The notes under the pieces are model-generated. The model worked only from the letters and a program-made list of their open reading frames with translations, searched no databases and was not told the DNA's origin. Shown one piece after another: positions 1 to 15,846 of a DNA stretch of 64,000 nucleotides; the stretch's first letter is position 1, and each line of letters begins with the position of its first letter. The translations under genes were made by a program, and so were the position numbers. This DNA comes from Candidatus Poribacteria bacterium. Its GTDB lineage: Bacteria; Poribacteria; WGA-4E; PCPOR2b. The stretch covers positions 3,776,001-3,840,000 of the forward strand of contig OZ220744.1 of the NCBI GenBank assembly GCA_965116925.1, read 5' to 3'.

Positions 1-27
1 GTCATAAATTCAAATGCATTCACGGAG

Positions 28-70
28 AAAGCCCATATCCAGTGAGAATTGGTGTGGGCTTTTTTATTTT
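28..70 (+). terminator. Rho-independent terminator of an upstream gene
   Basis: AAAGCCCATA...TGTGGGCTTT stem followed by a T-run. Confidence 0.65.
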
Positions 71-124
71 CGTTGAGTAACGAAACCCACACGATTGTGC
101 TACAGACATTGGTTTAATCACCGC

Positions 125-154
125 TTGTCAACCGAGACCGCTTCATGCTATAAT
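125..154 (+). promoter_or_regulatory. Putative sigma-70 promoter of argH
   Basis: TTGTCA-18 bp-TATAAT with extended -10 TG. Confidence 0.55.
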
Positions 155-229
155 ACCGCCCAATCCAATGCCGTAAAATAAGAGGTTTTACGAACTTTCA
201 CCACTTCCCATCTTCGGGGCTGGCCAACG

Positions 230-1741
230 ATGAACACTTCTACCAAACTCTGGGGCGGGCGATTTCGCTCCGAGGTGTCAACTGAAACTGAAGACTTCAC
301 ACAGTCCATTGATGTCGATTCACGCTTGGTCCCACATGACATCTGGGGCAGTCAAGTCCACGCTATCATGTTGGCACGGCAAGGAATTATCTCTGATGAT
401 GATCTCCGGCAGATCTTGCATTGGCTGGGCAAGGCGGAATCGGATTTCCGTGATGGGAAGTTTGTCCTCAAACCTGAAAAAGAAGATGTCCACATGAATG
501 TGGAGTCCTACCTCATCGAAGGTGCCGGAAGTGAGTATGGCGGAAAACTTCACACCGCTCGGTCTCGAAATGATCAGGTACTTGTCGATGCACATCTCTA
601 TATCCGCGAACAGCTCCTCGACACACAGCAGGGGGTATCCCATTTGTGTCGTGCGTTTCTCTCTATCGCACAGGAACACACCGAAACGGTCATGCCGGGC
701 TATACGCATACACAACACGCACAGCCAATCAGCCTTGGGTTTTGGGCGACAGCCTACGTCAGCATGGTTCTCCGGGATCAGAAGCGGTTGAATACAGCTT
801 ACGACCTTGCCAATCTCAATCCACTCGGCGCTTGTGCGCTCGCAGGGACCTCCTTCTCAATCGATCGAAACTTGACAACCGAGTTGCTCGGTTTTGATAG
901 GACGCATGAACATGCGTTGGATGTAATTAGCTCCCGCGATTTTATCGCTGAACCGCTTTTTGCGCTGACACTGCTGATGACCACCCTCTCAAGGCTTGGT
1001 GAGGAGATTGTTTACTGGACAACTTATGAATTTAACATCGCAACGCTTGATGATGCGTATGCGACGGGCAGCTCGATCATGCCTCAGAAAAAGAACGCCG
1101 ACATCGCGGAATTGACACGTGGACGGACGGGGAAGGTTTATGCAGCCCTTATGGACCTCTTGACGAATCTCAAAGGGTTGCCTACAGGATATAATCGCGA
1201 TCTCCAAGAGGACAAACCACCGCTGTGGGGTGCGTTTGATGTGGTTCAATCTTGCTTGGGGATTCTGCCCGGTCTTCTTGAGACACTCGACTTCAACACA
1301 GATCGGTTGGAACTGCTCGCCAATGCGAACTTCGCAACGGCAACAGAGCTAGCCAATTTCCTCGTTAGCGAACAGGGCTTGCCATTCCGAGAGTGTCACG
1401 GGATAGTTGGGAGCGTCGTGGAGGGCTTGGCGAAACGGGAGAAAACCTTTGGAGATTGGCAGGAAACGCAAGAGTTGTTGCGTTCCGAAGGTATTGACCT
1501 ATCCATCGCGCAACTCCAGTGCATTCTTGATCCGACACTTTCCCTCCACAATAACCGGAGTCTCGGCGGCACATCGCCCACGGAGGTGAAGCGAATGGTG
1601 GGTGAGTTTGAGAAAAGACTGAGCGAAATCGACAGCCAAATCCGCTCGCGGCAGGAGCAGATTAATACCGCTTACCAGAAAACACTTAGGATTATTGAAC
1701 AGGTGCTAGAGGGTAGAGCGATTGCAGAGGTCAATTTTTAA
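230..1741 (+). CDS. argH: Argininosuccinate lyase
   Basis: KLWGGRF N-terminus, LHTARSRNDQV, MPGYTH, GSSIMPQKKN signature, GYNRDLQEDK. Confidence 0.97.
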   Translation: MNTSTKLWGGRFRSEVSTETEDFTQSIDVDSRLVPHDIWGSQVHAIMLARQGIISDDDLRQILHWLGKAESDFRDGKFVLKPEKEDVHMNVESYLIEGAGSEYGGKLHTARSRNDQVLVDAHLYIREQLLDTQQGVSHLCRAFLSIAQEHTETVMPGYTHTQHAQPISLGFWATAYVSMVLRDQKRLNTAYDLANLNPLGACALAGTSFSIDRNLTTELLGFDRTHEHALDVISSRDFIAEPLFALTLLMTTLSRLGEEIVYWTTYEFNIATLDDAYATGSSIMPQKKNADIAELTRGRTGKVYAALMDLLTNLKGLPTGYNRDLQEDKPPLWGAFDVVQSCLGILPGLLETLDFNTDRLELLANANFATATELANFLVSEQGLPFRECHGIVGSVVEGLAKREKTFGDWQETQELLRSEGIDLSIAQLQCILDPTLSLHNNRSLGGTSPTEVKRMVGEFEKRLSEIDSQIRSRQEQINTAYQKTLRIIEQVLEGRAIAEVNF

Positions 1742-1748
1742 TAAGGGA

Positions 1749-1911
1749 TAGGACTTACGCACTTCAGTAGGGAACGCAGATCTGCGTTCCCTACGAATCC
1801 CTTATGGAATCTCTGTTGTAGTTGCCCGATGAATCGGGCGTTGGGACGGGTGTGCAGAGGCGATAAATCGCCGAACTACAAAACGTTGAACATTCAACTG
1901 CGTAACTCCTA
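1749..1911. mobile_element. TA-bounded MITE-like element containing GTAG palindromes
   Basis: Terminal inverted repeats TAGGACTTACGCA (1749-1761) / TGCGTAACTCCTA (1899-1911), 1 mismatch; internal perfect 28-bp palindrome 1767-1794 and an inverted pair of GTAG hairpins (1818-1840, 1859-1879). Confidence 0.7.
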
Positions 1912-1924
1912 AAGGGAGAGAAAA

Positions 1925-3454
1925 ATGAGGATTGGTATCGCTGGTCTTCATCATGAGACCAACACCTTTGCTTTAGAACAGAACGATACTATGGATACTG
2001 TCCATGTCCAGCGTGGAGAAACTCTGATCGCTACACACCCCAAGAATTTTATCGGCGGTTTTGTAGAAGGCGCCAAGCGAGGCGACGTAGAACTGGTTCC
2101 CACCGTCAGAATTGGCTTCGCCCACGGCGGCATCATCCATGCCGAAGTTTACCGGCGCTGTCGTGATATGATTGTGACAGGCTTGCAGCAGGCGGGACCG
2201 TTAGATGGCGTCTACTTCGCGCTTCATGGAGCGATGGTCGCAGAAGCACCCTATACCGATGCTGAAGGCGAACTGGTGCGGGAAGCGCGGCGGGTTCTAG
2301 GGGATATTCCTATGGTCGGTACTTACGACTTTCACGCTATCATGAGTGACGAGGAGGTTGAAGCACTCGTTCCTTTTCCTAATAACACCAATCCCCATAT
2401 TGACGGTTATGAGCGGGGATTGGAGGCGGCGGAATGTCTACTCCAAACGTTAGATGGCAAAATTAATCCGGTTACCCATCGAGTGTTTGTGCCGATCATT
2501 GGCCCCAATATCGGTCAAAGCACTTGGTCACACTTGCCGCAAGAGGAGCAAGGACTGCTACTCTATCAGTTGAACGAAAAGCGAGCGGAGATGGAAAAGA
2601 CCCCCAAGGTAATCAATATCACCATTCTCGGCGGCTACGGGTACGGTGATTCTGCGGATGCCGGTATGTCAATCATAGCGACGACTGACGGCGACCCGGA
2701 ACTCGCCAAACGACTGGCTCAAGAGTTGGCAAGGGATCTGTGGGAGCAACGGGAGCAATTGAAAATGGTGCGCCCGATACAATCTATTGATGCGGGAGTA
2801 AAAATGGCAATGGCTGATCCGCGAAAGCCGATTCTCTTGGTGGACTTAGGTGATGACCCCGGCAGTGCCTGTCCCGCCGATAGTCCGGCCGTGCTGGAAA
2901 GTCTGCTTCGTTGTGGGGCGCAGGATTGTGCACTCACTATCCGTGATGCAGAAGTGGTGCGCGCAGGCATAGCAGCCGGAGTAGGCGCAGAACTCAACAT
3001 CACCGTGGGGGGCAAGATTGACCAACGCTTCTACCAACCGCTGCAAATAACGGCTCAGGTCAAGTCTATTGACGATGGCAGGTACATGATCTGTGGTCCC
3101 ACACATGGTGGTTGGGGTCGTGAAGTCAACGAGGAAGCGTTTCGTGAGGCAAATGTGGGTAAGCGGGTTGTGCTGCGCACCGGGAATAAAATCGACGTTA
3201 TCTGCTCCCAACGAGGGACCGGCAAGGACCGAGATTTTTTCAAGAGTGCCGGTATCCTGTTGGAGGAGAAACAGATCCTCGTTGTCAAATCCAATCAAGC
3301 CCATCGCGCCTCCTTTGATCCGGTCGTTGCTGGCACCATAGAGCTAAACACCCCTGGTGTCAGCACTGTGAACTACGCTAGCCTCCCCTATCGCTACCTA
3401 CACCGCCCGATTTGGCCCATTGATGAGACGATGGATTGGCTGCCTTCTGCGTAG
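1925..3454 (+). CDS. M81 family metallopeptidase (MlrC-like)
   Basis: HETNTF, LHGAMV, DFHA, PHID, C-terminal VVKS..AHRASF and PIWP motifs. Confidence 0.9.
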   Translation: MRIGIAGLHHETNTFALEQNDTMDTVHVQRGETLIATHPKNFIGGFVEGAKRGDVELVPTVRIGFAHGGIIHAEVYRRCRDMIVTGLQQAGPLDGVYFALHGAMVAEAPYTDAEGELVREARRVLGDIPMVGTYDFHAIMSDEEVEALVPFPNNTNPHIDGYERGLEAAECLLQTLDGKINPVTHRVFVPIIGPNIGQSTWSHLPQEEQGLLLYQLNEKRAEMEKTPKVINITILGGYGYGDSADAGMSIIATTDGDPELAKRLAQELARDLWEQREQLKMVRPIQSIDAGVKMAMADPRKPILLVDLGDDPGSACPADSPAVLESLLRCGAQDCALTIRDAEVVRAGIAAGVGAELNITVGGKIDQRFYQPLQITAQVKSIDDGRYMICGPTHGGWGREVNEEAFREANVGKRVVLRTGNKIDVICSQRGTGKDRDFFKSAGILLEEKQILVVKSNQAHRASFDPVVAGTIELNTPGVSTVNYASLPYRYLHRPIWPIDETMDWLPSA

Positions 3455-3602
3455 TGTCTATGGGGAATTTGCTATCATTCAATCAACTCCGGCTGTGTCA
3501 AGAAAATAACTCAGAGTTTGTGCTTTTGGACATTAATTTGTCAGTTCCGATACTGATGCTAACAAGCTAATGATTGTACAGAGTTAGAACAGGAGATTGC
3601 TG

Positions 3603-4430
3603 ATGGAACAGCAACCACGAGAAAAATATCAACTCACCCTTGATCAGCGGCACTTCTTTGGAACACAAGGCTATCTGAAAGTTGAAGGATTGCTGAGTGA
3701 AGAAGACCTTCGTGAACTTGACCGTCATTCGATGGATATGGCGATGGGGAAGGTCGACTTCAGCCAACTGGAAGGAGTTACACCGAGAAGCGAGGGTAAC
3801 ACCCCTGCGGATATGGAGGATAAGTTCTTCCGCTTCATCCAGTTCCACCGGCACTTGACAATCCATGAGCGGTTTCTGCTACATCTCCGCATCCTTGATG
3901 TGCTTGAGACCTTGATTGGTCCCGATGTAATGGCGATGCAGTCAATGCTTTTCCTAAAGCCTCCGAAAAAATCCGGTCAGGCTTATCACCAAGATTCCTT
4001 TTACATCAAAACTGCCCCGGATACGTTGTGCGGAGCTTGGATAGCGATCGATGATTGCGATGAGGAGAACGGCTGCATGTATGTTGTTCCCGGTTCTCAC
4101 CTACACCCAATTTATGAGGAGGTAGCACTACCGGACAATACCGACGATTTTCAGGAAAGGCTGACCGAAATTGTCGGTGTAAAAGAAGGTAGCGAAGTAC
4201 CGGCGACCGCCAATGCCGGAGATGTCATCTTCTTCCATGGTCACCTTATCCATAGATCTAAGCAGAATCGATCAAAAGACCGATTTCGGCGGGCGTACGT
4301 CTGCCACTATGCCAACGCTCGATCTTATACCGAATGGGGCGAGGGCAATCAGAACCATATTCTTGCTCGCGGGTCAACGCATTTGCCGTTTGCGACACCT
4401 CGCTTTGTTACGCATGACCCGCTTGAGTAG
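3603..4430 (+). CDS. Phytanoyl-CoA dioxygenase family protein (PhyH)
   Basis: HQD iron motif, WIAIDD..EENGC..VPGSH, GDVIFFHGHLIHRS; SD AGGAG before ATG 3603. Confidence 0.9.
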   Translation: MEQQPREKYQLTLDQRHFFGTQGYLKVEGLLSEEDLRELDRHSMDMAMGKVDFSQLEGVTPRSEGNTPADMEDKFFRFIQFHRHLTIHERFLLHLRILDVLETLIGPDVMAMQSMLFLKPPKKSGQAYHQDSFYIKTAPDTLCGAWIAIDDCDEENGCMYVVPGSHLHPIYEEVALPDNTDDFQERLTEIVGVKEGSEVPATANAGDVIFFHGHLIHRSKQNRSKDRFRRAYVCHYANARSYTEWGEGNQNHILARGSTHLPFATPRFVTHDPLE

Positions 4431-4473
4431 CGTTCCAGTTTCGATTTTTAGGTATACCAATTCGCTCCGTTGA

Positions 4474-4640
4474 AACTTGGAAAGGAGATTTCGGTCAGTT
4501 ACCCCGCCCTGAAGGGACGGGGCTTGTTTGAAACGTCCGTCCAACGGGTCTTACAAGGTTCTGCGCTTCTGTCCCCTGACGGGGGATTTCGGGGTCGTTT
4601 GCAACCGACGCACCTCCACGCAAGGCTACAGCAGCCTTTT
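4474..4640 (-). ncRNA. Predicted omega RNA (scaffold plus ~20-nt guide) of TnpB element 1
   Basis: Hairpins overlapping the tnpB 3' end up to the right end; guide inferred from flank (CGAAAUCUCCUUUCCAAGUU); 5' boundary approximate. Confidence 0.6.
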
Positions 4641-5721
4641 TGATATTTATCGCGGCGTTATGGTCTCTATTGAGGACCAACCCACAATGGGGGCAATCAT
4701 GGAGACGATCCGACAACTGTTTAGGCACAACTTCATTACAACCGGAGCATTGCTGACTGGTATGGTGAGGTTTCACTTTCGTGAACTGCTTGCCGGCACT
4801 TGCAGCCTTGCTTTGCAGTTTCAATCGAAAGCTACCCCATCCCGCGTCAGATATACTCTTGGCGAGGTAGTGGTTCTTCAACATATTGGTGATGGTCAAG
4901 TTCTCTACAGCGACCTCATCACATCGTTCAAGGAGACGATGGGCTGCCTTGAACTGAAAATCCTTGCGCTGATTCACTATCCGTTCATGGCAACGGGCGA
5001 CAATCTCACGTTGTTTTGCTCGGCGGCGGCTCCCCTTTTTGCGGCGAGACAATACGCATTGATGTTTGCCAAGCTTCTTTTCGGATTTACGATAATGGCG
5101 GAGGTTTGGGATATGTTCGCCATCAGAATCGACAGCAAACGAGTTAAGTCCCACGTCTACGCCAATCGTCGTGTGGACAGGGACTTCTATAGGGGCTGGC
5201 ACTTCGACGCAGATAGTTACATACCAACCGCTGGCTCGCTTGATGACCGTCAGATTCTTGATGTTGCCGTCAGGTAAAGGACGGTGATAACGAATCTTGA
5301 GGTGTCCTATTTTCGGAACAACGACTTTGGCAAACTTACGATGTACACTCCGGACCAGCTGCTTGGACAGGTGGCTAAAGGTCATTGACCGGTATCGCCC
5401 TTCGCCTTTGAAGCGGGGGAAGCCCGGTGCCGCCCCGTTCTTGGCACGGCGGAAGAATGCTTTGTACGCTTTATCCAAACGGCGCATCGCATCTTGGAGA
5501 ACATCCGCGTGAAGTCCTGCAAATGCCTTGGATGCTGCTTTCAAGTCAGGTAAGGCGTTGGCTTGGGTCGTCCATTTGACAGAATCGTTATTTTTCTGGT
5601 AAGCGTCTATCCGCCACGCTAACGCTTGATTGTAGAGATTTCGCAACAAGGCAAGCCAAAACAAAAAAGTATGTCGCTGTTTCGTCGTAGGATAGGCGCG
5701 ATATTCATAAGTCTTTTTCAT
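4495..5721 (-). CDS. tnpB: RNA-guided endonuclease TnpB with canonical RuvC triad
   Basis: KTYEYRAYPT HTH start, PRFK, GVDVGL (D), VAVENL (E), CSGC/CPHC zinc finger, NRDHNAAINI (D); start 5721 chosen by analogy with element 2. Confidence 0.93.
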   Translation of the reverse strand: MKKTYEYRAYPTTKQRHTFLFWLALLRNLYNQALAWRIDAYQKNNDSVKWTTQANALPDLKAASKAFAGLHADVLQDAMRRLDKAYKAFFRRAKNGAAPGFPRFKGEGRYRSMTFSHLSKQLVRSVHRKFAKVVVPKIGHLKIRYHRPLPDGNIKNLTVIKRASGWYVTICVEVPAPIEVPVHTTIGVDVGLNSFAVDSDGEHIPNLRHYRKSEKKLGKHQCVLSRRKKGSRRRAKQREIVARCHERIVNQRKDFQFKAAHRLLERCDEVAVENLTITNMLKNHYLAKSISDAGWGSFRLKLQSKAASAGKQFTKVKPHHTSQQCSGCNEVVPKQLSDRLHDCPHCGLVLNRDHNAAINIKKAAVALRGGASVANDPEIPRQGTEAQNLVRPVGRTFQTSPVPSGRGN

Positions 5722-5847
5722 GCTGGTTAGCTTTCTGGCTTTCATTCCTTTTCTACGAGGTGTAGGGGACATCCCGAAGGGTTCGGGATGGTAGAAATCC
5801 CCTACGAAAGCCATAAGAACTGTACCATATTTCACACAACTTTTCAA
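5722..5847 (-). promoter_or_regulatory. tnpB1 promoter plus pseudoknotted 5' leader
   Basis: TTGAAA-17-TACAGT with extended TG; four complementary segment pairs between 5736 and 5813. Confidence 0.7.
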
Positions 5848-5908
5848 CGAAAAAGGAGCGCAGTTTCCTCCCCGCTCTAAAGAATGGGGGCTCCACTGCG
5901 AAGATTTG

Positions 5909-6760
5909 ATGAACAATCAAGATGTCAAACTGACGGATCAGCAGATCAATTTTTTTCAGACCTTCGGTTATCTAAGCTTCCCCGGATTCTTGGCAGACCG
6001 TAGCGAGGAAATCATCAATGCGTTTGAAGCGGTTTGGGCGGAACGTGGAGGAGGCCATAACGGGAAACCCCACGAGGGGACAGCACGCTCCTGTATCGTT
6101 CCGTTCATCGATCAGAGCGAATATTTATCGTCTCTGTTAGATGACCCCCGTATATTGAGAATAGCGACCACGCTTCTCGGTGACGACTTCAACTATATGG
6201 GCAGCGATGGGAACTACTACGTCGGAGATACGCGCTGGCATTCTGATGGGGGACACAAACCGGAGGATCCTACCCACCTCAAAATTGCATTTTACCTCGA
6301 TCATCTAACCCGTGACACCGGTGCCCTGCGCGTCATTCCCGGCAGCCATCTCTTTGGGGATGGTTACGCGGATCGGCTTCAGGAGGAGATTCGGGAGAGT
6401 GAAGCAGACTGGGGCGTTCATGGCAAGGATGTGCCAGCAATCGCATTCGAGACGCAGCCGGGGGATGTGGTGTGTTTCAATCACAATACCAAGCACGCTG
6501 CGTTTGGCGGCGGCACACGCCGACGGATGTTTACCATGAACCTTTGTGAACGTTATCCCGAAAATCGTTTGGAGGACCTACGCACCTACATCGGCAACTC
6601 AGCGCGGTTCTGGATCGACCGCAAATATGGTCCGAAGATGGTAGGTACTGCGGGCCCTGAACGGATAGTGCACTTAGAACAGGTGATGGCTAACGATGGG
6701 CATCTCGCTGAGCTTTCACGTAAAGCGCAGGAAACAATGAGCGAACCTTCGCGTGGGTAA
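5909..6760 (+). CDS. Phytanoyl-CoA dioxygenase family protein (PhyH)
   Basis: WHSD, YLD..T..TGALRVIPGSH, QPGDVVCFNHNTKHA. Confidence 0.9.
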   Translation: MNNQDVKLTDQQINFFQTFGYLSFPGFLADRSEEIINAFEAVWAERGGGHNGKPHEGTARSCIVPFIDQSEYLSSLLDDPRILRIATTLLGDDFNYMGSDGNYYVGDTRWHSDGGHKPEDPTHLKIAFYLDHLTRDTGALRVIPGSHLFGDGYADRLQEEIRESEADWGVHGKDVPAIAFETQPGDVVCFNHNTKHAAFGGGTRRRMFTMNLCERYPENRLEDLRTYIGNSARFWIDRKYGPKMVGTAGPERIVHLEQVMANDGHLAELSRKAQETMSEPSRG

Positions 6761-6814
6761 GTTCTCCGCTAGTGTAGCGCGTTCATCCTCTCATTTCACA
6801 CAACTACGATTTGT

Positions 6815-6853
6815 GTTCAGGGGTTCAAGGGTTGTTAAACCCCTGAACTTTTT
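6815..6853 (+). terminator. Rho-independent terminator
   Basis: GTTCAGGGGTT/AACCCCTGAAC stem then TTTTT, between convergent genes. Confidence 0.65.
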
Positions 6854-6871
6854 GTAGCATTCATAGGTCGG

Positions 6872-7912
6872 CTAAAAAGCTGACTGCACCCTTTCCGCCT
6901 TCCCGCTCCTTGCAGACCGCTCGCAGGCATCTAACACAGCGATGACCTTCGTACCGACCTCTGCGTTAATTAGTGGCTGTTTGTTGTGCTTGAGGCAGTC
7001 TTCAAAATGTAGCATATAACGCACCACTTCACCGATATGTCCAACATCGGCAATCTCATCTGTCCCTATAGAAGCGGCCTCTTCGACGGGGATGATGCTG
7101 CGATGGTCATCATCGAAAATCGCATCCCCATTGACAACACTGCCGGCAGTTCCGTAGACCGATAGCCCTAGCATTGGCATCGGTGCATGACAGAGACCGT
7201 AAAGCCCTAGGACACGGCCGAGCCGCCCATCCTCATAGATTAGATTGACCATCCAGTTGTCGTTGAAATGTCCCTCACCTGACGGATATCGCTCATCAAT
7301 TCCGCTTTCATGGGCAATCGCATGTACGGCACTGGGGAAACCGAGAAACCAGATAATCAGATCCATTGGATGACACAGTCCGCCGTAGAGCGTTTTCTGA
7401 GGCATCTGGTGTCTCCACGGTGTCGCTGTTAGCACGCTGCGCATATCATGGACATAATGGGCTTCGACTGCGACGATATTGCCAAGTTTGCCAGCTTCCA
7501 TTAATCGGTGCGTGTGCATAAAATCTGGTCGAAAGCGGCAGGTCTGTCCAACCATGAGTTTCAAACCGGTTTCCCGCGTCCTCTGCAATACACGAACCGC
7601 ATCGTCAAGGCTGTCAACAAACCCTTTTGTGCAGATTATATGCTTGCCACAATCGAGAGCGTCAAGGCAGTGCTGTGCGTGAAGTGGATCCGGTGTGTAA
7701 ATGCCCACGATGTCGATTTCATCCCGCTGGAGGAGTTCCCGATAATCCATCGTTGCAAACGGAACATTATGTTCTGTACGGATGCTTTCCAGCCGATCCG
7801 CATCTGTATCGCAAATCCCCCGGATTTCCAGATCGGTATCGGGAATCTGTCGAATCCCAAACATCGACTTTCCCATCCCTAACCCAATAATCCCAACGCC
7901 AATTTTCTCCAT
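6872..7912 (-). CDS. Gfo/Idh/MocA family oxidoreductase
   Basis: GIIGLGMG Rossmann motif, YTPDPLHA, GKHIICTK; SD GGAGG before ATG 7912. Confidence 0.88.
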   Translation of the reverse strand: MEKIGVGIIGLGMGKSMFGIRQIPDTDLEIRGICDTDADRLESIRTEHNVPFATMDYRELLQRDEIDIVGIYTPDPLHAQHCLDALDCGKHIICTKGFVDSLDDAVRVLQRTRETGLKLMVGQTCRFRPDFMHTHRLMEAGKLGNIVAVEAHYVHDMRSVLTATPWRHQMPQKTLYGGLCHPMDLIIWFLGFPSAVHAIAHESGIDERYPSGEGHFNDNWMVNLIYEDGRLGRVLGLYGLCHAPMPMLGLSVYGTAGSVVNGDAIFDDDHRSIIPVEEAASIGTDEIADVGHIGEVVRYMLHFEDCLKHNKQPLINAEVGTKVIAVLDACERSARSGKAERVQSAF

Positions 7913-8071
7913 GTCTCTATCGCCTCCTGTTGTAGATGTCAAAATTACCCATTTTTCCCGCGAAAATGCGAAAATTGTTTCCACCTCAAAGTTGAGGATT
8001 ATATCATAGATTATGAATTGCATTACAAACAAAGACATTTTAATTTTATGTTACGAAAAACCCTTTAGGTC

Positions 8072-8177
8072 TATAGTAGATTTTAGAATTAATGAGACAC
8101 TGCAAATCGGCGCAGTTGGAAACAGCGCCTACCAGATGAGGAGCGAAAGTGTCTGTTTATTTTTTAAATTCACTATA
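8072..8177 (+). mobile_element. Correia-like MITE, copy 1, inserted in the left end of element 2
   Basis: TATAGTAGATTTTAGAA ... TTTTAAATTCACTATA termini; near-identical copy at 13337. Confidence 0.82.
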
Positions 8178-8236
8178 AATCCCAATCCTTTAGGTTTGGA
8201 GCATTTGGGGCGCAGCCTATACAGATTGCTTTAGCA

Positions 8237-8362
8237 TCGACTTTTCAGGAGAAATATGGTATACTTGTCCCGTCTTTCGGTGGGAAGGTTCGACACCATC
8301 GCACGGTGGTGCTTCCCACACCCTATCGAACAGGAAGACGAAAGACCGAAAGGACCCTCCCC
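8237..8362 (+). promoter_or_regulatory. tnpB2 promoter plus pseudoknotted 5' leader
   Basis: TCGACT-17-TATACT with extended TG; four complementary segment pairs 8272-8346. Confidence 0.7.
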
Positions 8363-9514
8363 ATGTATACAACCAAGAAGCTGAAATATGATAAGACCCC
8401 TGACTTGGATATGCTTGCTCACGAGTCTGGTCGTTGCTATTGCAAAGTTGTGTCTTTACTCTGGAAAGTCAAGCGGAAGAAAGGGTTTTGGCTATCACAA
8501 GGTGCAGTCCAAAAGTATATGCGTTTGCGTGGCTACAATCTACACTCACAAACGGTACAAGCGATAATCCAATCCTATTTTGATTCGCTCAAGAGTTACT
8601 TTCGGGCTGTCGAGTCAAATCCTGAAGCGAAGCCACCAAAACGGACTCCTCATTTCTACAAGGTGCGTTGGATTCAAAATGGCATCGCCTTCAAAGATGG
8701 TGTCGTCAGGTTGTCTAATGGTAAAGGCAATGCGCCTATTACCCTCAAATCAGATGTCAAACCGGTCTATGTGGAGATGTACTTCCAACGGGGGAGTTAC
8801 TACTTTTCACTTGTCTACAAGGTGCATACACCCCCCAAGTGTGAAACAGACAAAGCGGTTGCGATAGACATGGGTGAGATTCACCCGATAGTTTCTCATG
8901 ACGGACAACAGACCATCATCTACAATGGTCGTGCGTTACGGGCTATCAAACAGTATATCAACAAGTTTAAGGCACATATCCAATCTAAAATGGATAGGTG
9001 TATCAAACGAAGTAATCGCTGGTATCGTCTCAAACGAGTTAAGACCAAGATACTGGCAAAGTTGAACGCTCAACTGAAGGACGCCGAACATAAAATCACA
9101 TCTCGATTTATATCCGACTGCTTAAAGGCGAAGGCGGATACGATAGTGATTGGAGACCTAAAAAGTATCCGGGATAGAGCGAAGTTTTCTAAGAAGTCTA
9201 ACCAGAAGGTTCACCAATGGGCGTTTGCCCGTCTCCAATTCATGATATGCTACAAAGCAGAGTTAGCAGGACTCAAAGTCAAGGTTGTATCCGAGGCATA
9301 CACCTCTCAGACCTGCCCACGGTGTGGCAATCGAAAGAAACCGACAAACCGGAACTATCACTGCAATCACTGTAGCTTTGAATACCACCGAGACGGTGTT
9401 GGTGCAATCAACCTTTGGAACAAAGTATCGGGATTCCTGTTGAGTCCCGTAGTTGGGGCGATGGTGTCCCCGATAGGTGTCAGATTTGATTGGCACCTAT
9501 GTAAATCTGGCTAA
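8363..9514 (+). CDS. tnpB: TnpB with rearranged RuvC-II
   Basis: AIDMG (D), IVIGDL (canonical E absent), SEAYTSQTCPRC, CNHC, HRDGVGAINL (D); SD AAGGA before ATG 8363. Confidence 0.9.
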   Translation: MYTTKKLKYDKTPDLDMLAHESGRCYCKVVSLLWKVKRKKGFWLSQGAVQKYMRLRGYNLHSQTVQAIIQSYFDSLKSYFRAVESNPEAKPPKRTPHFYKVRWIQNGIAFKDGVVRLSNGKGNAPITLKSDVKPVYVEMYFQRGSYYFSLVYKVHTPPKCETDKAVAIDMGEIHPIVSHDGQQTIIYNGRALRAIKQYINKFKAHIQSKMDRCIKRSNRWYRLKRVKTKILAKLNAQLKDAEHKITSRFISDCLKAKADTIVIGDLKSIRDRAKFSKKSNQKVHQWAFARLQFMICYKAELAGLKVKVVSEAYTSQTCPRCGNRKKPTNRNYHCNHCSFEYHRDGVGAINLWNKVSGFLLSPVVGAMVSPIGVRFDWHLCKSG

Positions 9515-9580
9515 CATAGTGGATAAGAATCCCAATGCTTTCGCTTTGGGAGTACGTCAATGGATTTTTAGGGAAAACGC
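9425..9580 (+). ncRNA. Predicted omega RNA of TnpB element 2
   Basis: Stems 9429-36/9442-49 and 9473-81/9492-9500, possible pseudoknot 9481-87/9503-09, right-end hairpin, then guide from 9561. Confidence 0.6.
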
Positions 9581-9620
9581 AAGCCTACTGAAGCAATTAT
9601 GTCGAACAATAGAATTTTGC

Positions 9621-9649
9621 TTGTATAAAAATTTGGTTTGTGCTACAAT
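9621..9649 (+). promoter_or_regulatory. Putative sigma-70 promoter
   Basis: TTGTAT-17-TACAAT with extended TG. Confidence 0.55.
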
Positions 9650-9727
9650 ATGGCAAACTTTTGGAAATTGTCATACCATAAACCATATTCGTTCACTTTA
9701 GAATGAATCTTTTCCGAGGAGGTAACA

Positions 9728-10600
9728 ATGAGAAGTATAACAGGAATAGCGATTGTTAGCATTTTTGTTTTTAGTATTATCCTCAGTGGCTGCGGTAAAT
9801 TGAGCAAAGAAGAGTTTGCCATGGAGATGGATAAATACAACCAAGAAAATACAGCGGCACACACTGATCTGGGTAACCAAGTCTCTGAGCTGAGTGGCAA
9901 GGTTGATGCTCAAGGGGATGCTTTGAGGTCAGAGGTGTCTATGGCAAAAGAAGCTGCCATTACTGCCTCTCAGCAGGGTGATGCGGATACAATTACAGTT
10001 GCCAAAGAGGCAGCTGAAAGTGGGGACGCCAAACTGCGTGAGGAACTTATGCAGACTGCAAATATGGTTGAGGAAAAGGCACAACAGGCCGCCATGTCCG
10101 GAGATCAGAAGCTCCAGGACCAGATTGCTGCCGTTGAGGATACAACCAAAATGCAAGCCCAAAAGATATCCGATTTGGAAGCTGCACTCATGGAGACAAA
10201 AAAGGCACTTGCTGCAACTAAAGAGATGGCTGCTGCCAAACCAATGATGGTGGCTACAGTTCAGTTCCCCAGTGGGAAAGTCGACCTGACTGCAGCTGCC
10301 ATGGAAGCCCTTGATAAAGCAGTGGCAAAGATTCAAGCAGATGCTGAGGCATCGGTCCTCGTCAAGGGTCACGCGGATGGCAGCCCGGTACTCAGGGGAA
10401 GATACCGCAGCAACTGGGATCTTTCTCAAGCTCGTGCAGATTCGGTTGTGCAATATCTCAAGAGCAAAGGCGTAGCGAATACAATTCAATCTCGTGGACT
10501 TGGACATACGGAACCTATCGCTCCAGTTAAGACGAGAGAGGGGCGCGCCCAGAACCGGCGAGCAGAGGTTATTCTCTTGCCGGCTGGCTCGATGATGTAG
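9728..10600 (+). CDS. OmpA/MotB-family lipoprotein with coiled-coil stalk
   Basis: Lipobox LSGC, Ala/Glu/Gln-rich helical region, GHAD...NWDLSQARA...NRRAEV. Confidence 0.88.
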   Translation: MRSITGIAIVSIFVFSIILSGCGKLSKEEFAMEMDKYNQENTAAHTDLGNQVSELSGKVDAQGDALRSEVSMAKEAAITASQQGDADTITVAKEAAESGDAKLREELMQTANMVEEKAQQAAMSGDQKLQDQIAAVEDTTKMQAQKISDLEAALMETKKALAATKEMAAAKPMMVATVQFPSGKVDLTAAAMEALDKAVAKIQADAEASVLVKGHADGSPVLRGRYRSNWDLSQARADSVVQYLKSKGVANTIQSRGLGHTEPIAPVKTREGRAQNRRAEVILLPAGSMM

Positions 10601-10623
10601 CACTTCACACTGTACCTACTTTC

Positions 10624-10668
10624 AGGGAAATTGGGTGGAATCGGCTTCATCCCAATTTCCCTTTTTTT
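10624..10668 (+). terminator. Rho-independent terminator
   Basis: AGGGAAATTGGG/CCCAATTTCCCT stem then T-run. Confidence 0.8.
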
Positions 10669-10699
10669 ATGATAATTTAAGTTGCTGTTCAAAAAGTGT

Positions 10700-11167
10700 A
10701 TGGCGAGCAAGAACCAACTATTTGAGGCGAAAACGGAATTTATCGGTACACGCGGCGTTAAAGAGTACCGTGAGACCATCCCTGTTTGGGTGAATACAGA
10801 TGATGTTGTGCTAGAAATCGGTTGTGAGTGGGGGACGACAACCGCGTTGATTGCGCCGCATTGTCAGAAGGTCATCGGTACTGACATTAGTCCTAAGTGT
10901 ATTGAGCGTGCCCGGGAAATGCACCCTGACCTGCACTTTGAGGTCCTAGATGGATTCGATGTTAAAGCAGCACTTGAGTTCGGTGAACAGTTTAATAAGA
11001 TTTATATTGATATTTCCGGTTTATCTGGTTACCGGTCTCTGCTTGATACAATTTCGTTACTTATGATGTACGCGACTGTGCTGCGGCCCGAAGCAATTAT
11101 CGTTAAAAGTGGCGCGCTCAAACGTTTTGCTGCACACTGTATTCCGTGGCGGTCAACGTCATCTTAA
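10700..11167 (+). CDS. Class I SAM-dependent methyltransferase
   Basis: VLEIGCEWGTTT motif I, GTDIS. Confidence 0.75.
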   Translation: MASKNQLFEAKTEFIGTRGVKEYRETIPVWVNTDDVVLEIGCEWGTTTALIAPHCQKVIGTDISPKCIERAREMHPDLHFEVLDGFDVKAALEFGEQFNKIYIDISGLSGYRSLLDTISLLMMYATVLRPEAIIVKSGALKRFAAHCIPWRSTSS

Positions 11168-11231
11168 TTACCTTTTGAGAGGATTTTTCGTCACCCTAAC
11201 GCTAGACTGACGGATTACCGTTTCACGTACC

Positions 11232-11966
11232 ATGCATCTTCCACAGGGTCCTGTCACTTATAAATATATAGAGGTTGGTAAGACACTCTATCAAGCTGTG
11301 TCAACACGAACACCACGATTTCCGCCTCGTGTTGCGTATGTGATGCTTAATTCACTGTTTGAGGAAGAACGGGAGCCGATTACAGTGTATGATCCGTTCT
11401 GCGGTAATGGCGTCATCCTCTGCACAGCGTACCTTCTTTTTTGGCGGAAAATAAAAAAATTGATCGGGACAGACCTGCATCCGGTTGTGTTAGAAACGGC
11501 ACAGCAAAATTTTCGGTGGATGAAGGAACGAAGTGCCCTTGAGGAGCGATTACATGCGATCGAAGCGTACAAAACCGAGAATGATAAACTGAAAAGAGCT
11601 TATCAGGAACGGTGCCGATTGATCTTTAATCACGCGCAACAGATTCACCTTGATGTAGAACTCTCACAACACGACGCAACTCGGATTCGGGAGCATCTGG
11701 CTTTGATTGATGGGGAAGTCGCCCTCGTCACAGATCCACCTTACGCTCATAATGACCATTGGCATCCGAAGGATGGACCGGAATTAGCGGATTTTGGTCC
11801 TCTTGAACCGTTCCTTCAACAAGTTGCAGAGGCACCGAATGTGGCTACGCTCCTGATCTGTTACCGAGTCGATCAACCAATTCGCAAGTTGTTGGAGACG
11901 TACTTTGTGGTGACGCCGCTCGGCGGAACAAAAGGTAGAGCCATCTATCAATGTCAACCGAGATGA
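11232..11966 (+). CDS. SAM-dependent methyltransferase, AviRa-like rRNA methyltransferase
   Basis: GKTLY...PRFPPRVA, TVYDPFCGNG, VTDPPY. Confidence 0.6.
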   Translation: MHLPQGPVTYKYIEVGKTLYQAVSTRTPRFPPRVAYVMLNSLFEEEREPITVYDPFCGNGVILCTAYLLFWRKIKKLIGTDLHPVVLETAQQNFRWMKERSALEERLHAIEAYKTENDKLKRAYQERCRLIFNHAQQIHLDVELSQHDATRIREHLALIDGEVALVTDPPYAHNDHWHPKDGPELADFGPLEPFLQQVAEAPNVATLLICYRVDQPIRKLLETYFVVTPLGGTKGRAIYQCQPR

Positions 11967-12031
11967 AGCTGATATATGAAATGTAATGACAACCAAAAAC
12001 GGGAATAGGACCGTTGACAATATAACAAGAA

Positions 12032-12745
12032 ATGGACAGATCTTACATAGTTTCTCCACTGCTACTTATAGTGCTTATTGGCTGCTTCGTAGGAAATATC
12101 TCGGTTGGATCGACAGTCGTCTCAGACGCGCCGCCTGAAGGCGAGCGTCCTAATCTACTACATAATGTTGTAGGGCGTAGCGTCGAATCCGCATCGTTCC
12201 ACATCTCTTTCTTTTCTTATAAGCCAAGCTTGGAGCAGCTTACAACGTTGTTGAACAGCCTCGGCGCGCCGGCACTCAACGCCGGGTTGATGCCGGTTGC
12301 TTCTCTGAAACTGAAACACGCGCCGGAGTTATCTTCCCAAATAGCGATTGGGTATTGGACAAATGCTACAGCCCTACCACCACCGACCGCCGCCGACCTT
12401 TCCGCTACCTTTATCCCCATTTCGTTCAGCTTGCTCTATTATCCCGTCCTGCTCCGTGATTTCCTTCCGCTTTACTTTGGGGGCGGCGTGGGGTATTCAC
12501 ACTTGAGTGTTGGTGGCAGTGGTCTTGTCCTATTGGCGCAACAAGGAATCACTCTTGATGATGGGAATTCTGGTTTGACGGGGAATGTTCAAGTCGGATT
12601 AACGTATTTACTTCTCGACGACCAGCTTACCCTTACCCTTGAGGCAAAGCGGATCCTCAAGACTTTCAAGGGGAGCGGTGCGATTCCCTTCGACCTCGAT
12701 TTTGACGGCACTGCGATTGGCGTGGGGATTGGATTGCACTTCTGA
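12032..12745 (+). CDS. Outer-membrane beta-barrel protein (OmpW/OmpA-like)
   Basis: Signal peptide, LYFGGGVGY strand, terminal GVGIGLHF. Confidence 0.65.
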   Translation: MDRSYIVSPLLLIVLIGCFVGNISVGSTVVSDAPPEGERPNLLHNVVGRSVESASFHISFFSYKPSLEQLTTLLNSLGAPALNAGLMPVASLKLKHAPELSSQIAIGYWTNATALPPPTAADLSATFIPISFSLLYYPVLLRDFLPLYFGGGVGYSHLSVGGSGLVLLAQQGITLDDGNSGLTGNVQVGLTYLLLDDQLTLTLEAKRILKTFKGSGAIPFDLDFDGTAIGVGIGLHF

Positions 12746-12769
12746 AAGGAATGAATCAGCAGATGGAGA

Positions 12770-13294
12770 TTGGAATTGAACGTAGATTTCTTAAAAGATA
12801 AAACAGTCGGAAAAATTTTGCCTTGGCTCGCTTGGGGATGTCTAGTCGTAATTTTAGGTTGTGAGACCGGTACAATAGACAATTTCGGAGGTATCAAGGT
12901 TGAAACTAATTTTCGGTTTGATCGGATTGAGTTCGACATTTTCTTGCTGAATGAAAACGGTCGTCCATTAATCCAGACCGGAAGTATCTTGACACCGGGA
13001 ACTGGGCCCAGGAGCCTCTCGGAGTCCAAATTCACGGCACATGTCGAGATCTACTCAATGCGGAATGGTGCTAGAAGCAAAAAAGTCTACGATGGACGTC
13101 CCATTGATTTGCGATGGGGGGCACTCGGTGGAAACCGCAGGGTCCTTTTTGCGGAAATACCCCATCGGTTGATTGAAAAAGATGAGCAACGTGACACGAG
13201 GATGGGCGTGATTATTGTCACATTGCAAACGGACAAACAGGGCCCATTTAAGGATACTCTGGAAGATACGCGAATTTATAGCCTAGCCCCCTAA
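12770..13294 (+). CDS. Hypothetical lipoprotein
   Basis: Hydrophobic stretch with ILGC lipobox; start uncertain. Confidence 0.55.
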   Translation: MELNVDFLKDKTVGKILPWLAWGCLVVILGCETGTIDNFGGIKVETNFRFDRIEFDIFLLNENGRPLIQTGSILTPGTGPRSLSESKFTAHVEIYSMRNGARSKKVYDGRPIDLRWGALGGNRRVLFAEIPHRLIEKDEQRDTRMGVIIVTLQTDKQGPFKDTLEDTRIYSLAP

Positions 13295-13336
13295 TAGGAT
13301 CGACAATTTTCGATCTTTTCTCTCCTTATATTTATT

Positions 13337-13444
13337 TATAGTAGATTTTAGAATTAATGAGACACTCTAAATCGGCGCAGTTACAAACAGCGCCTACCAA
13401 ACATGGGGAGCGAAAGTGCCCGTTTATTTTTTGAATTCACTATA
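13337..13444 (+). mobile_element. Correia-like MITE, copy 2
   Basis: Same termini and interior as 8072-8177. Confidence 0.82.
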
Positions 13445-13562
13445 ATTAACCCACCCGAATGCCTATCGCACAATTTTGGTTAATCCCTTCCTCTCCTTTT
13501 TCGTCATTCTAATATCTAAATATACGCTGCATCTCAACACCTAAGTACCAAAAGAAGGAAGT

Positions 13563-15791
13563 ATGAGTTTCAATCTGCATCAATTCCCTGAAATTAGAAA
13601 ATACCTATTTCTTTTAAGTTTTATATTCTTATTTCCGATTTGTATAAGTTCCGCCGCTGAACCGATAGAATACCGAGCCGAGGCGTATCGAACTTTTCAG
13701 AGCATTGAGATTGACGGGGATTTCAGTGAAACCGACTGGCAGCATGCAAAGCGAATAAATCAATTTGTCCAAACCGAGCCCGATGAAGGGGCCCCGATAA
13801 CTGAATCAACAGAGGTCCGTATCCTTTACGATGAGAAAAACATCTACTTCGGTTTTACCTGTTCAAGTTCCGGTCGTGATAACATTGTTGCCAACGAAAT
13901 GCGTCGAGATGCAGAAAATTTGCGTGAGAATGATAACGTTTTCATCCTTTTGGACACCTACAACGATAAGCGGAGTGGGGTTTTCTTCCGCATCAATCCA
14001 TTAGGTGCAATGCAGGATATAGCGTTGACAAACAGCGGAGATAGCCAGAACAGGAGTTGGGATGCTGTATGGAACTGTCGCTCCAAGATCAATGATACCC
14101 ATTGGACAACGGAGGTTGCCATTCCTTTTAGCCAACTCCGTTTCAACAGAAGCGATTCGATGGTCTGGGGCTTGAATTTTGGACGAACCATCCGGCGAAA
14201 GAACGAGGAAGCCACGTGGGTTCCGGTATCGAGACAGTATGGGAGTCGATCGAAATATCGAACCGCTAACCTCGGTAACCTAGTTGGTTTGGCAGGCATT
14301 GGCTCGTCAAGACGGCTTGAGTTTCTGCCTTATGTCCTACCGGGGGTTAGTCGAATCGAGGGTGATGAGGGCACCGATGGGGTATTCGACATGGGCTTGG
14401 ATCTGAAGTACGGTTTAACCTCGAACCTTACCGCAGATCTAACGCTTAACACGGATTTTGCTCAAGTTGAGGCGGATCAGGAACAGGTCAACTTGACGCG
14501 CTTTAGTCTGTATTTCCCGGAGAAGCGCCCCTTCTTCTTGGAGGGTGCCGGACTATTTGATTTCGGTATTCCTCGTCCGAGTTTCTTTAGTCCGCCTCCG
14601 TTACTCCTCTTTTATAGTCGTCGCATCGGTCTTGAGGAGGGTTACGCCATCCCGATTATCGGTGGGGGCAAGATTACGGGGAAGGTGGGACCTTACGGCA
14701 TTGGCCTGTTGAATGTGTTGACGGACGAATTTCAGACCGATTCATCAGTTACGGATCAAGATGAAATTGTTGATCTGTCTAGGACAAATTATTCGGTGCT
14801 GCGTGTCACACGGGATATCTTCAGTGGCTCTAGCATCGGAGCGATTGCGATTAATAAACAGGATCCGGATACATACAACCGTGCGGGAGGATTGGACTTC
14901 GCATATCGCCCAAACGACAGTATTGATGTTCGTGGATTGTGGGCACGAACTTACGAGGAGAATGTTTCTAGCAAGAATGATGCGATGTACTTTGGCGGTA
15001 CTTGGCGAAACAGTCTACTCCGATTCAATGGAACATATACGTTCATCGGTGAAGATTTCAACCCTGAAGTCGGCTTCGTCCGCCGTCAGGGCAGCCGACG
15101 ATTCCGTGGACAGATACGTTTCACCCCCTGGCCCAGAAAATTCGGAGTACGACGCATCTTCATGGGACCGGATGTTGACTATATTCTTAACCAAGATGAT
15201 GAGCTGGAAACGCGGGAATTTTCACTCACTAATTGGTTTCAGCTTGAGCAGGGGAGTTGGATCAACGTTGAGATTCGACGAACCTCCGAATTTCTTGACG
15301 AGGATTTTGAAATCCGTGATGGCATTATCATACCGGTTGACGATTACAACTTAACTACCCTCAGAACGATGATCGATACGGATCAGGGGCGGAAGATTTC
15401 CGGTCGATTCGGGGCAAATTACGGCACCTTTTTTAATGGTACAAATCGCGGGTTTGATATCCAGGCGAACTTCAAACCGAGCGGACGCCTCGCCTTTGAA
15501 ACGCAATATCAATTTAACCGGGTGAATCTCCCGAACGAAGATCCTTTCAATGTGAATATTTTCGGGAGTCGCATTGTTTATGCTTTTACCACAACCCTTT
15601 TTGCGAAGTTGTTCGCCCAATGGAACAGCGACGATCAAGTGATTTCCACTAACTTTTTGCTCAACTACATCTACCGTTCCGGCAGCGATTTTTACCTCGT
15701 TTTCAACCAGACTTATGATAGTGATGGTGCGAAAACAGAACTTGAAGAATCAACAGTTGTTGCGAAGATGACTTATTGGTGGAATCCGTAA
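13563..15791 (+). CDS. CBM9-like plus DUF5916 outer-membrane protein, paralog 1
   Basis: Signal peptide, IDG..W.., WTTEVAIPFSQLRF, NTDFAQVEAD...NLTRFSLYFPEKRPFFLEG, YSRRIG, terminal YWWNP. Confidence 0.88.
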   Translation: MSFNLHQFPEIRKYLFLLSFIFLFPICISSAAEPIEYRAEAYRTFQSIEIDGDFSETDWQHAKRINQFVQTEPDEGAPITESTEVRILYDEKNIYFGFTCSSSGRDNIVANEMRRDAENLRENDNVFILLDTYNDKRSGVFFRINPLGAMQDIALTNSGDSQNRSWDAVWNCRSKINDTHWTTEVAIPFSQLRFNRSDSMVWGLNFGRTIRRKNEEATWVPVSRQYGSRSKYRTANLGNLVGLAGIGSSRRLEFLPYVLPGVSRIEGDEGTDGVFDMGLDLKYGLTSNLTADLTLNTDFAQVEADQEQVNLTRFSLYFPEKRPFFLEGAGLFDFGIPRPSFFSPPPLLLFYSRRIGLEEGYAIPIIGGGKITGKVGPYGIGLLNVLTDEFQTDSSVTDQDEIVDLSRTNYSVLRVTRDIFSGSSIGAIAINKQDPDTYNRAGGLDFAYRPNDSIDVRGLWARTYEENVSSKNDAMYFGGTWRNSLLRFNGTYTFIGEDFNPEVGFVRRQGSRRFRGQIRFTPWPRKFGVRRIFMGPDVDYILNQDDELETREFSLTNWFQLEQGSWINVEIRRTSEFLDEDFEIRDGIIIPVDDYNLTTLRTMIDTDQGRKISGRFGANYGTFFNGTNRGFDIQANFKPSGRLAFETQYQFNRVNLPNEDPFNVNIFGSRIVYAFTTTLFAKLFAQWNSDDQVISTNFLLNYIYRSGSDFYLVFNQTYDSDGAKTELEESTVVAKMTYWWNP

Positions 15792-15846
15792 CGCATGAAA
15801 CATAGGACATTTGTAAATATTTGTTTTTTTTCAAAGGAAACCGTCT

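Follow-up and report, generated by a model that had tools for sequence, protein, structure and literature searches.

A pseudoknotted leader RNA with two tandem partners for its first strand lies ahead of tnpB genes in Poribacteria

The window analysed here, a stretch of 64,000 nt from a contig of Candidatus Poribacteria, holds two divergent tnpB genes and raises the question of what occupies the space between their promoters and their start codons. A preliminary description of the DNA had placed there a pseudoknotted 5′ leader RNA shared by the two genes. We find a compact pseudoknotted fold of about 85 bases, which lies between promoter and tnpB in many mobile elements of these sponge bacteria. 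The leader is a real structured RNA that has not been catalogued; control of transposon genes by leaders is itself already known. The first tnpB gene and its leader (copy 1) are laid out as follows, with end hairpins, inverted repeat and helix D read directly from the sequence.

4494..5908, minus strand: element 1, a tnpB-only element of IS200/IS605 type (IS1341-like); empty-site contigs from public runs join 4492 to 5908/5909
4494..4525, minus strand: right-end hairpin of element 1
4495..5721, minus strand: tnpB gene 1, 408 aa, with PF01385, PF07282 and PF12323 over cut-off
5729..5735, minus strand: A″, distal partner of A, which covaries with A and lies over a predicted weak ribosome site, AGAAAG, that the ribosome may use
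5737..5743, minus strand: A′, proximal partner of A, closing the three-way junction (folding, alignment)
5747..5760, minus strand: short hairpin E, with arms 5760-5758 and 5749-5747 of 3 bp, 87% paired in the alignment
5756-5750, minus strand: C′, in the loop of hairpin E, pairing with bulge C (pseudoknot covariation)
5762..5805, minus strand: long arm, with helix B (5805-5798/5769-5762), bulge C (5797-5791) and hairpin D (5790-5770)
5790-5782/5778-5770, minus strand: pairing of helix D
5806..5812, minus strand: strand A, the predicted first bases of the transcript, with A′ or A″ as partner (covariation, sequence)
5819..5847, minus strand: promoter of sigma-70 type, TTGAAA-17-TACAGT with extended TG (promoter scan), predicted +1 at 5812
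5859..5900, minus strand: inverted repeat at the left end of element 1, distinct from the leader and present also in leaderless sisters

The fold of the leader is a three-way junction of A, B and E, in which the bulge of the long arm and the loop of the short hairpin join in a kissing helix of 6-7 bp. Much of the preliminary description of copy 1 stood: all four of its helices, A, B, C and D, pair at these minus-strand coordinates, the TG-extended sigma-70 promoter is present at 5847-5819, and the crossing of B/B′ by C/C′, which makes the fold a pseudoknot, is borne out both by the coordinates and by covariation of C with C′. The linkers about C′, given as ACC and AGGA, in fact run to ACCUC and AGGAAU, and hairpin E, whose loop holds C′, had been overlooked. 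The GAAAG given before the ATG is A″ (5735-5729), a second copy of A′ that lies 7 nt before the ATG. The 16S tail of this genome ends CCTCCTTTCT and is complementary to the AGAAAG of A″ in family f1, one of the families of the phylum considered below.

The second gene and its leader are arranged as follows, the two end hairpins of its element being likely assignments from the sequence.

8181..8200, plus strand: likely left-end hairpin of element 2
8237..8265, plus strand: promoter of copy 2, TCGACT-17-TATACT with extended TG (promoter scan)
8272..8362, plus strand: leader copy 2, with A 8272-8279, B 8280-8287/8312-8319, C 8288-8293 and D 8294-8311
8321-8346 and onward, plus strand: 3′ part of leader copy 2, with E 8321-8335, A′ 8339-8346 and A″ from 8347
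8363..9514, plus strand: tnpB gene 2, 383 aa, with PF07282 and PF01385 over cut-off
9531..9560, plus strand: likely right-end hairpin of element 2, ending TCAA

The order of stems in copy 2 is identical to that in copy 1, as had been proposed, and the two TnpB proteins of the window are 19% identical (alignment A6). At the second RuvC motif most aligned homologues read EDL or ENL and TnpB 2 reads GDL; the other two acidic residues align. Taken singly, copy 1 folds with a z-score of -5.4 (0 of 200 shuffles as stable) and copy 2 with one of -1.7 (15 of 200); the folding of copy 2 alone is not beyond chance, and it is comparative evidence that carries the claim of a leader.

For the nested helices this evidence comes from 75 distinct sequences aligned to model R1, the alignment being fitted to the model and the sequences being kin. 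In it 97.1% of cells are paired (98% in the long-arm helices), and both sides vary in 24 of 25 pairs. Covariation stands at 0.539 as against 0.202 in shuffled alignments, with none of 500 shuffles reaching the observed value, and as against 0.07-0.09 in slid controls; the compensatory change first proposed from two copies is strong across the 75. Cells with G-U number 77 and those with A-C 10, an excess from which we conclude that it is the sense strand that folds. The pseudoknot is absent from model R1 and was tested separately on the 43 distinct bulges found among the 75 leaders. At least 5 Watson-Crick pairs with the leader's own E loop are formed by 34 of the 43, compared with 4.4% of 1806 cross-pairs, and at least 6 by 27 of the 43, compared with 1.6%; none of 2000 permutations did as well, although permutation counts overstate significance in related sequences such as these. 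Nine bulges fall short of 5 pairs, five of which reach 4-7 pairs when G-U is allowed.

The position of the leader relative to its promoter is equally regular. Among 56 well-scored promoters (19 of the 75 rows, with weaker scores, being left out), the start of helix A lies 7 nt downstream of the -10 box in 54 copies, and in 52 the helix begins with G; this fixed spacing leads us to predict that transcription starts at the base that opens helix A. The promoter scan gave no opposite-strand site close to either tnpB start codon in the window. Contigs from RNA libraries span the leader, one of them extending upstream across the predicted +1; such contigs carry no strand, start or level. Library depth is higher near the right end, to which we give no evidential weight, and the sigma-54 locus is poorly covered. 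Two other interpretations of the leader were dropped: a leader peptide, as copy 1 has an in-frame AUG upstream that is not conserved among the copies, and an intrinsic terminator, as no U-run follows A′.

The feature that the preliminary description had overlooked is that A′ is followed by a near-copy, A″, so that A is complementary to two tandem partners. In a hand-picked set of 28 distinct versions of A from all classes, with two rows set by hand, 25 pair at -5 kcal/mol or lower with the region downstream in their own leader, as against 15.5% of cross-pairs, and none of 5000 permutations of the A:A″ test gave as low a value. In the 19 rows linked to tnpB, A″ has its first base 3-17 nt upstream of the AUG and covers the predicted ribosome site or the start codon. 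Many copies of family f2 have an A″ that is not Shine-Dalgarno-like and still covaries with A; in L064 and L200 A″ contains the AUG, and a Shine-Dalgarno-like AAGGA lies between A′ and A″. The two registers lie within 2 kcal/mol of each other in 42 of 63 parsed copies (median -0.1 kcal/mol), and the proximal, open register wins in 45 of the 63, by 4.0-4.5 kcal/mol in both window copies; these energies cover 63 of the 75 rows, the other 12 being unfit for the parse, and the energy model takes account neither of the pseudoknot nor of the off state's larger loop. In the long variant the kissing helix is compatible with both registers, and in a short variant (L209) it is the A:A″ state that has the lowest energy, A′ being sequestered in a hairpin of its own and hairpin E excluded.

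We propose, and hold the chances to be about even, that the leader is a sliding-helix gate on the translation of tnpB. Building on the observed fold, the two partners and the placement of A″, the model supposes that a transcript begun at the predicted start would first pair A with A′ as it is being synthesized, leaving the ribosome site free (on), and that A would then move over by about 8 nt to pair with A″, so that initiation is blocked (off), with a consequent effect on protein output. The sequence-free kissing core may bias the balance between the registers, and it would be the likely point of action of the trigger, whether a host protein, Mg2+ or temperature, or time since synthesis. Repression by default may be slight, since the open register wins in the window copies and the energy model omits the pseudoknot and the larger off-state loop. 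Of the regulatory module that had been suggested from the two copies, the translational switch is thus the best reading; autoregulation and ligand sensing fare otherwise as general roles, as described below.

The kissing helix has a further property, in that no column of the bulge reaches 85% conservation. In a 35-row set from one tnpB subfamily, the bulge differs by 0.46-0.55 per site in the four bins of greatest distance, compared with 0.18-0.37 in hairpin D and 0.37-0.65 at four-fold-degenerate sites in the same bins; at short distances the bulge stands at 0.09 where synonymous sites stand at 0.12, and at 0.21 where they stand at 0.25. Helices A and B are biased low in this test, the loci having been picked by a pattern that fixes both. 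The kissing sequences evolve at roughly the rate of synonymous sites and yet remain matched, and several C/C′ versions coexist within one genome. Such a pattern could be the mark of a device for self-recognition, with C/C′ as a barcode, in which pairing between molecules would tip the helix off as copy number rises and new C/C′ versions would escape the resident copies. The multitude of bulges among the 75 leaders, nearly all of them matched to their own loop, their coexistence and their divergence in distant bins, above that of hairpin D and near that of four-fold-degenerate sites, are all as it would have them; we nevertheless regard it as very unlikely, as the bulge is no faster than synonymous sites at short distances, relaxed constraint explains the data equally, the pairs compared are not independent, and B and E keep constant lengths of 8 bp and 3 bp, which agrees with intramolecular pairing.

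The near-absence of conserved sequence bears also on whether the leader might be a riboswitch aptamer or a self-cleaving ribozyme. A multistem junction, a pseudoknot and an apparent expression platform are what one would look for in such RNAs, and the covariation of A with A″ points to a predicted alternative pairing over the ribosome site. Self-cleaving ribozymes such as the pistol, HDV-like and twister classes have invariant unpaired catalytic nucleotides. In a diverse alignment of 40 rows, however, only 7 columns are at least 85% conserved, five of them paired, so that the unpaired ones are a single loop C, in a loop absent from short variants, and one A in A″. There are no conserved nucleotides for a ligand pocket and no common gene theme; the riboswitch scores are at chance level (SAM-VI 20.7 bits against a cut-off of 57.5, Na+ 14 against 40.5), and no ribozyme family appeared in the Rfam scans. 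Of the readings considered here we hold this to be the least probable, and the small-ligand sensing offered in the preliminary description is not retained as a general role, almost no unpaired base being conserved.

Comparison with known families, to none of which the preliminary description could assign the leader, likewise gave no assignment. No Rfam 15 family matches at its gathering cut-off; positions 1-16000 of the window gave no match at E<=1, and sub-threshold matches appeared only at E<=10 on short loci. The closest in nested skeleton is the DUF1874 RNA (RF02953; PMC5737381), whose Rfam consensus has a closing helix, a long arm, a short C/G hairpin and a purine-rich ribosome site, and whose three-way junction followed by a ribosome site is found in the leader too. 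One leader of the sigma-54 class discussed below (L025) aligns with it end to end at 22.2 bits against a cut-off of 42, with 32 model positions skipped; it is the one of 13 distinct copies scanned as short loci that matched, and this genome gave no match over cut-off. In contrast with the leader, the short loop of the DUF1874 RNA has 4 nt, too few for a kissing helix of 6-7 bp, and many internal-loop bases are conserved in the published consensus as far as consulted, whereas the leader's bulge has 43 versions in 75 sequences. The same source, in the part consulted, reports the DUF1874 RNA from consecutive intergenic regions (PMC5737381). The literature consulted yielded no description of the leader; a motif described only in the supplement to PMC5737381, which holds most of its 224 motifs, is a possibility. 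Kissing between a hairpin loop and an internal loop or bulge occurs also in the ALIL pseudoknot of IS3411 and other IS elements, which, according to the parts of the report consulted, stimulates -1 frameshifting from 3′ of the shift site and has its apical-loop stem first (PMC5009743). In the leader, by contrast, the bulge comes first, both stems belong to one junction, and the whole is an untranslated leader between promoter and start codon.

In its action the leader would most resemble the 5′ UTR of IS200 tnpA, from the same transposon superfamily, in which RNA structure represses translation and the antisense RNA art200 and Hfq take part (PMC4513863, from its abstract). The two differ, as far as that description goes, in that the IS200 leader controls tnpA by way of antisense RNA and Hfq, and the abstract mentions neither a pseudoknot nor a tandem partner. 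The Arc protein, too, is a regulator carried by an element that restrains a strong element promoter, in its case by repressing IS605 promoters at the DNA (bioRxiv 10.64898/2026.09.24.754181); here the same position is filled without any ORF, and neither a UTR nor RNA structure nor a pseudoknot is mentioned in the text of that report seen by us. The omega-RNA, which TnpB excises from the mRNA, occupies the 3′ end of tnpB, and both it and the ORF-less PATE elements parallel the leader as non-coding RNA in tnpB elements with ORF-less derivatives (PMC10055086, PMC10278001, in the parts consulted). Identity of the leader with omega-RNA was rejected, the leader being 5′ and optional and model R1 giving two matches in the window, both 5′ and none at the 3′ ends. 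For element 1 we take the 3′ omega-RNA to lie at the right-end hairpin, 4494..4525.

How far the leader extends beyond the two genes that it had been said to serve was examined with model R2, which gives 39 matches in this genome at E<=1 and 38 at E<0.001, among them tnpB remnants, ORF-less miniature elements and copies without visible element ends. By tblastn the genome has 29 TnpB loci, 3 of them 3′ fragments, and 22 of the 26 loci that have a 5′ end carry the leader while 4 do not. At E<=0.001 the leader is present in 108 of 150 genomes of the phylum Poribacteria (23 of 25 in family f1, 79 of 99 in f2, 5 of 10 in f3 and 0 of 15 in other families). Many tnpB genes have no model match: genome G052 has 108 TnpB matches and 40 leader matches, and of the model-negative tnpB genes inspected two directly follow tnpA-like sequence and others carry a short form. 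In this form, from genus g7, hairpin D is missing and helix A encloses two hairpins that kiss through covarying loops; about a dozen loci show it by eye, the g7 loci noted being L203, L204, L206, L207, L209, L210 and L399-L408, and R2 missed both short-form loci tested. A strict pattern search of the species-genome collection returned 99 stretches, and among the 80 listed 79 are from Poribacteria and the other, L076, has no model match; the same pattern found none in viral contigs and none in metagenome contigs. R2 applied to 141 genomes of the phylum of L076 gave one weak match at chance level (25.7 bits, E 0.003), and it gave none in 100 loci comprising 76 viral TnpB, 21 TnpB of that phylum and the Poribacteria loci L200, L203 and L204. 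As these last three carry variants of the fold by eye, R2 overlooks divergent forms. A topology scanner run on 128 viral TnpB upstream regions, with 30 partial or offset loci left out, gave two AT-rich and unconvincing matches; it is insensitive, having caught only 1 of 8 family-f2 loci of Poribacteria. Metagenome contigs scanned at the protein level with TnpB 2 yielded no relative. The leader is thus detected in one phylum, and its occurrence may be wider, as the searches also miss divergent forms within Poribacteria.

A class of leaders without tnpB lies behind promoters of sigma-54 type, whose consensus we take to be TTGGCAC-N5-TGC, with palindromic upstream sites and often just behind a gene for a sigma-54 activator. 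To this class belong all 4 leader matches in genome G023 and all 7 in G032, assemblies of 1 and 2 contigs that are 96% and 94% complete and have no PF07282 match. Leaders in genomes without a TnpB match argue against a requirement for binding of TnpB, and autoregulation by TnpB, which had been put forward, cannot therefore be the general role. Most copies of the class have an extra hairpin of about 45 nt 5′ of A, and host genes begin 150-550 nt downstream of the leader; A″ is followed by no conserved ORF, and no element ends were seen. By eye, the bases after A″ resemble the first codons of genes of TnpB 2 type with the AUG altered, which suggests that the class may have been captured from a transposon. 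Palindromic sites, promoter and leader make up a repeated cassette of about 350 bases, at L057-L061, L063, L065, L173, L174 and L178 and in this genome at G000:C1 322174, 338634, 3117509 and 3232679, often downstream of a sigma-54 activator and upstream of genes whose products look secreted or leucine-rich-repeat-like. Downstream of leaders in general there is tnpB, no gene, or a variety of host genes with no shared metabolic theme.

Miniature elements without an ORF, at G000:C1 4280337, 5588994, 2585541, 5407739 and 3969498, have the order left end, promoter, leader, omega-RNA-like or other non-coding sequence, right end; in three such elements a small hairpin separates A′ from A″. The ORF-less element at G000:C1 863388 has the same promoter and end hairpins and a different sequence in place of the leader. 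At G000:C1 5833003 (L410) the leader lies, by eye, ahead of a UvrD-like gene, with no intact ORF of 100 aa in 2.6 kb, and L179 is a copy without A″ ahead of a DEAD-box helicase. L050 and L056, from different families, each precede, next to position 1501, one and the same short sequence other than tnpB, with a small divergent ORF at its side; bulge C is missing from L056.

In both the miniature elements and the sigma-54 class A″ is kept and covaries with no conserved gene downstream. Gating does not explain A″ in copies without clear translation unless near-cognate starts or short peptides matter, and because A″ persists where nothing is clearly translated the main rival to the gate is a stabilizer of the 5′ end, an explanation that we consider possible though unlikely. 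The paired +1 base and the knot would protect the transcript, be it tnpB mRNA, omega-RNA precursor or host mRNA, from decay begun at the 5′ end, and A″ would keep that end paired when A′ is opened. A position at or near the predicted transcript start is common to nearly all contexts, including ORF-less elements, where the leader lies directly ahead of 3′-end-like sequence, and the host genes that begin 150-550 nt away, and the small number of bases conserved in sequence also agrees with such a role. For protection, however, a single partner would suffice, most sigma-54 copies have their 45-nt hairpin 5′ of A, and A″ in tnpB copies follows the initiation region, in places onto the AUG itself. 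A broader proposal, which we think improbable taken as a whole, joins the sliding helix to a barcode-like kissing lock in a portable RNA regulator, by which transposon transcripts would sense their own number and shut off translation of TnpB, mutant barcodes would escape, and host sigma-54 promoters would have taken over the device.

As for the elements that carry the leader, sisters of theirs have spread without it. Element 1, whose right end (5908/5909) is uncertain by one base, has the features of an IS1341-like element, namely tnpB, hairpin ends, a fixed adjacent motif, an empty site and no tnpA inside; five Y1 transposase matches lie elsewhere in this genome. In related copies TTCAT or TTCAC precedes the left end. 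From the insertion context in the window (4478-4492 and 5909-5913), element 1 sits between a purine-rich, ribosome-site-like GGAAAGGAG (~4479-4487) and the ATG, at 5909, of a PhyH-family gene, and since TTCAT reads ATGAA on the opposite strand, start codons may be frequent targets of such elements. In a sister element on a contig from the public runs, promoter and leader (5722-5857) are replaced by 31 other bases, and three leaderless sisters, 59-66% identical to TnpB 1, have the same ends at three different sites. Promoter and leader are therefore an optional cassette, in keeping with the modularity first suggested, to which the four 5′-complete tnpB loci without a leader also attest.

These sisters weigh against the remaining possibility, that the leader acts as a single-stranded DNA structure for transposition or as an operator for autoregulation by TnpB. 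The leader lies just inside the left end, its strand is the one as which IS200/IS605 elements move, and the asymmetry of G-T over A-C cannot separate RNA from that DNA strand. We judge a role of this kind very improbable indeed, given sisters that share the ends and lack the leader, end hairpins that are separate from it, copies behind sigma-54-type promoters with no element ends in the TnpB-negative genomes G023 and G032, and a spacing from the -10 box that is fixed.

The leader represents a new family of structured RNA with very strong natural covariation and an unusual design, in which A, A′ and A″ covary together and a kissing helix is free of fixed sequence. One study, in the portion consulted, suggests that output of TnpB is under post-transcriptional control of the IS200 kind (PMC10278001). 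On its predicted role, the leader would be a specific and mutable RNA candidate for limiting native TnpB output, with a natural control built in, as sister elements exist with and without it, and its design could be reused as a small, tunable device for translation.
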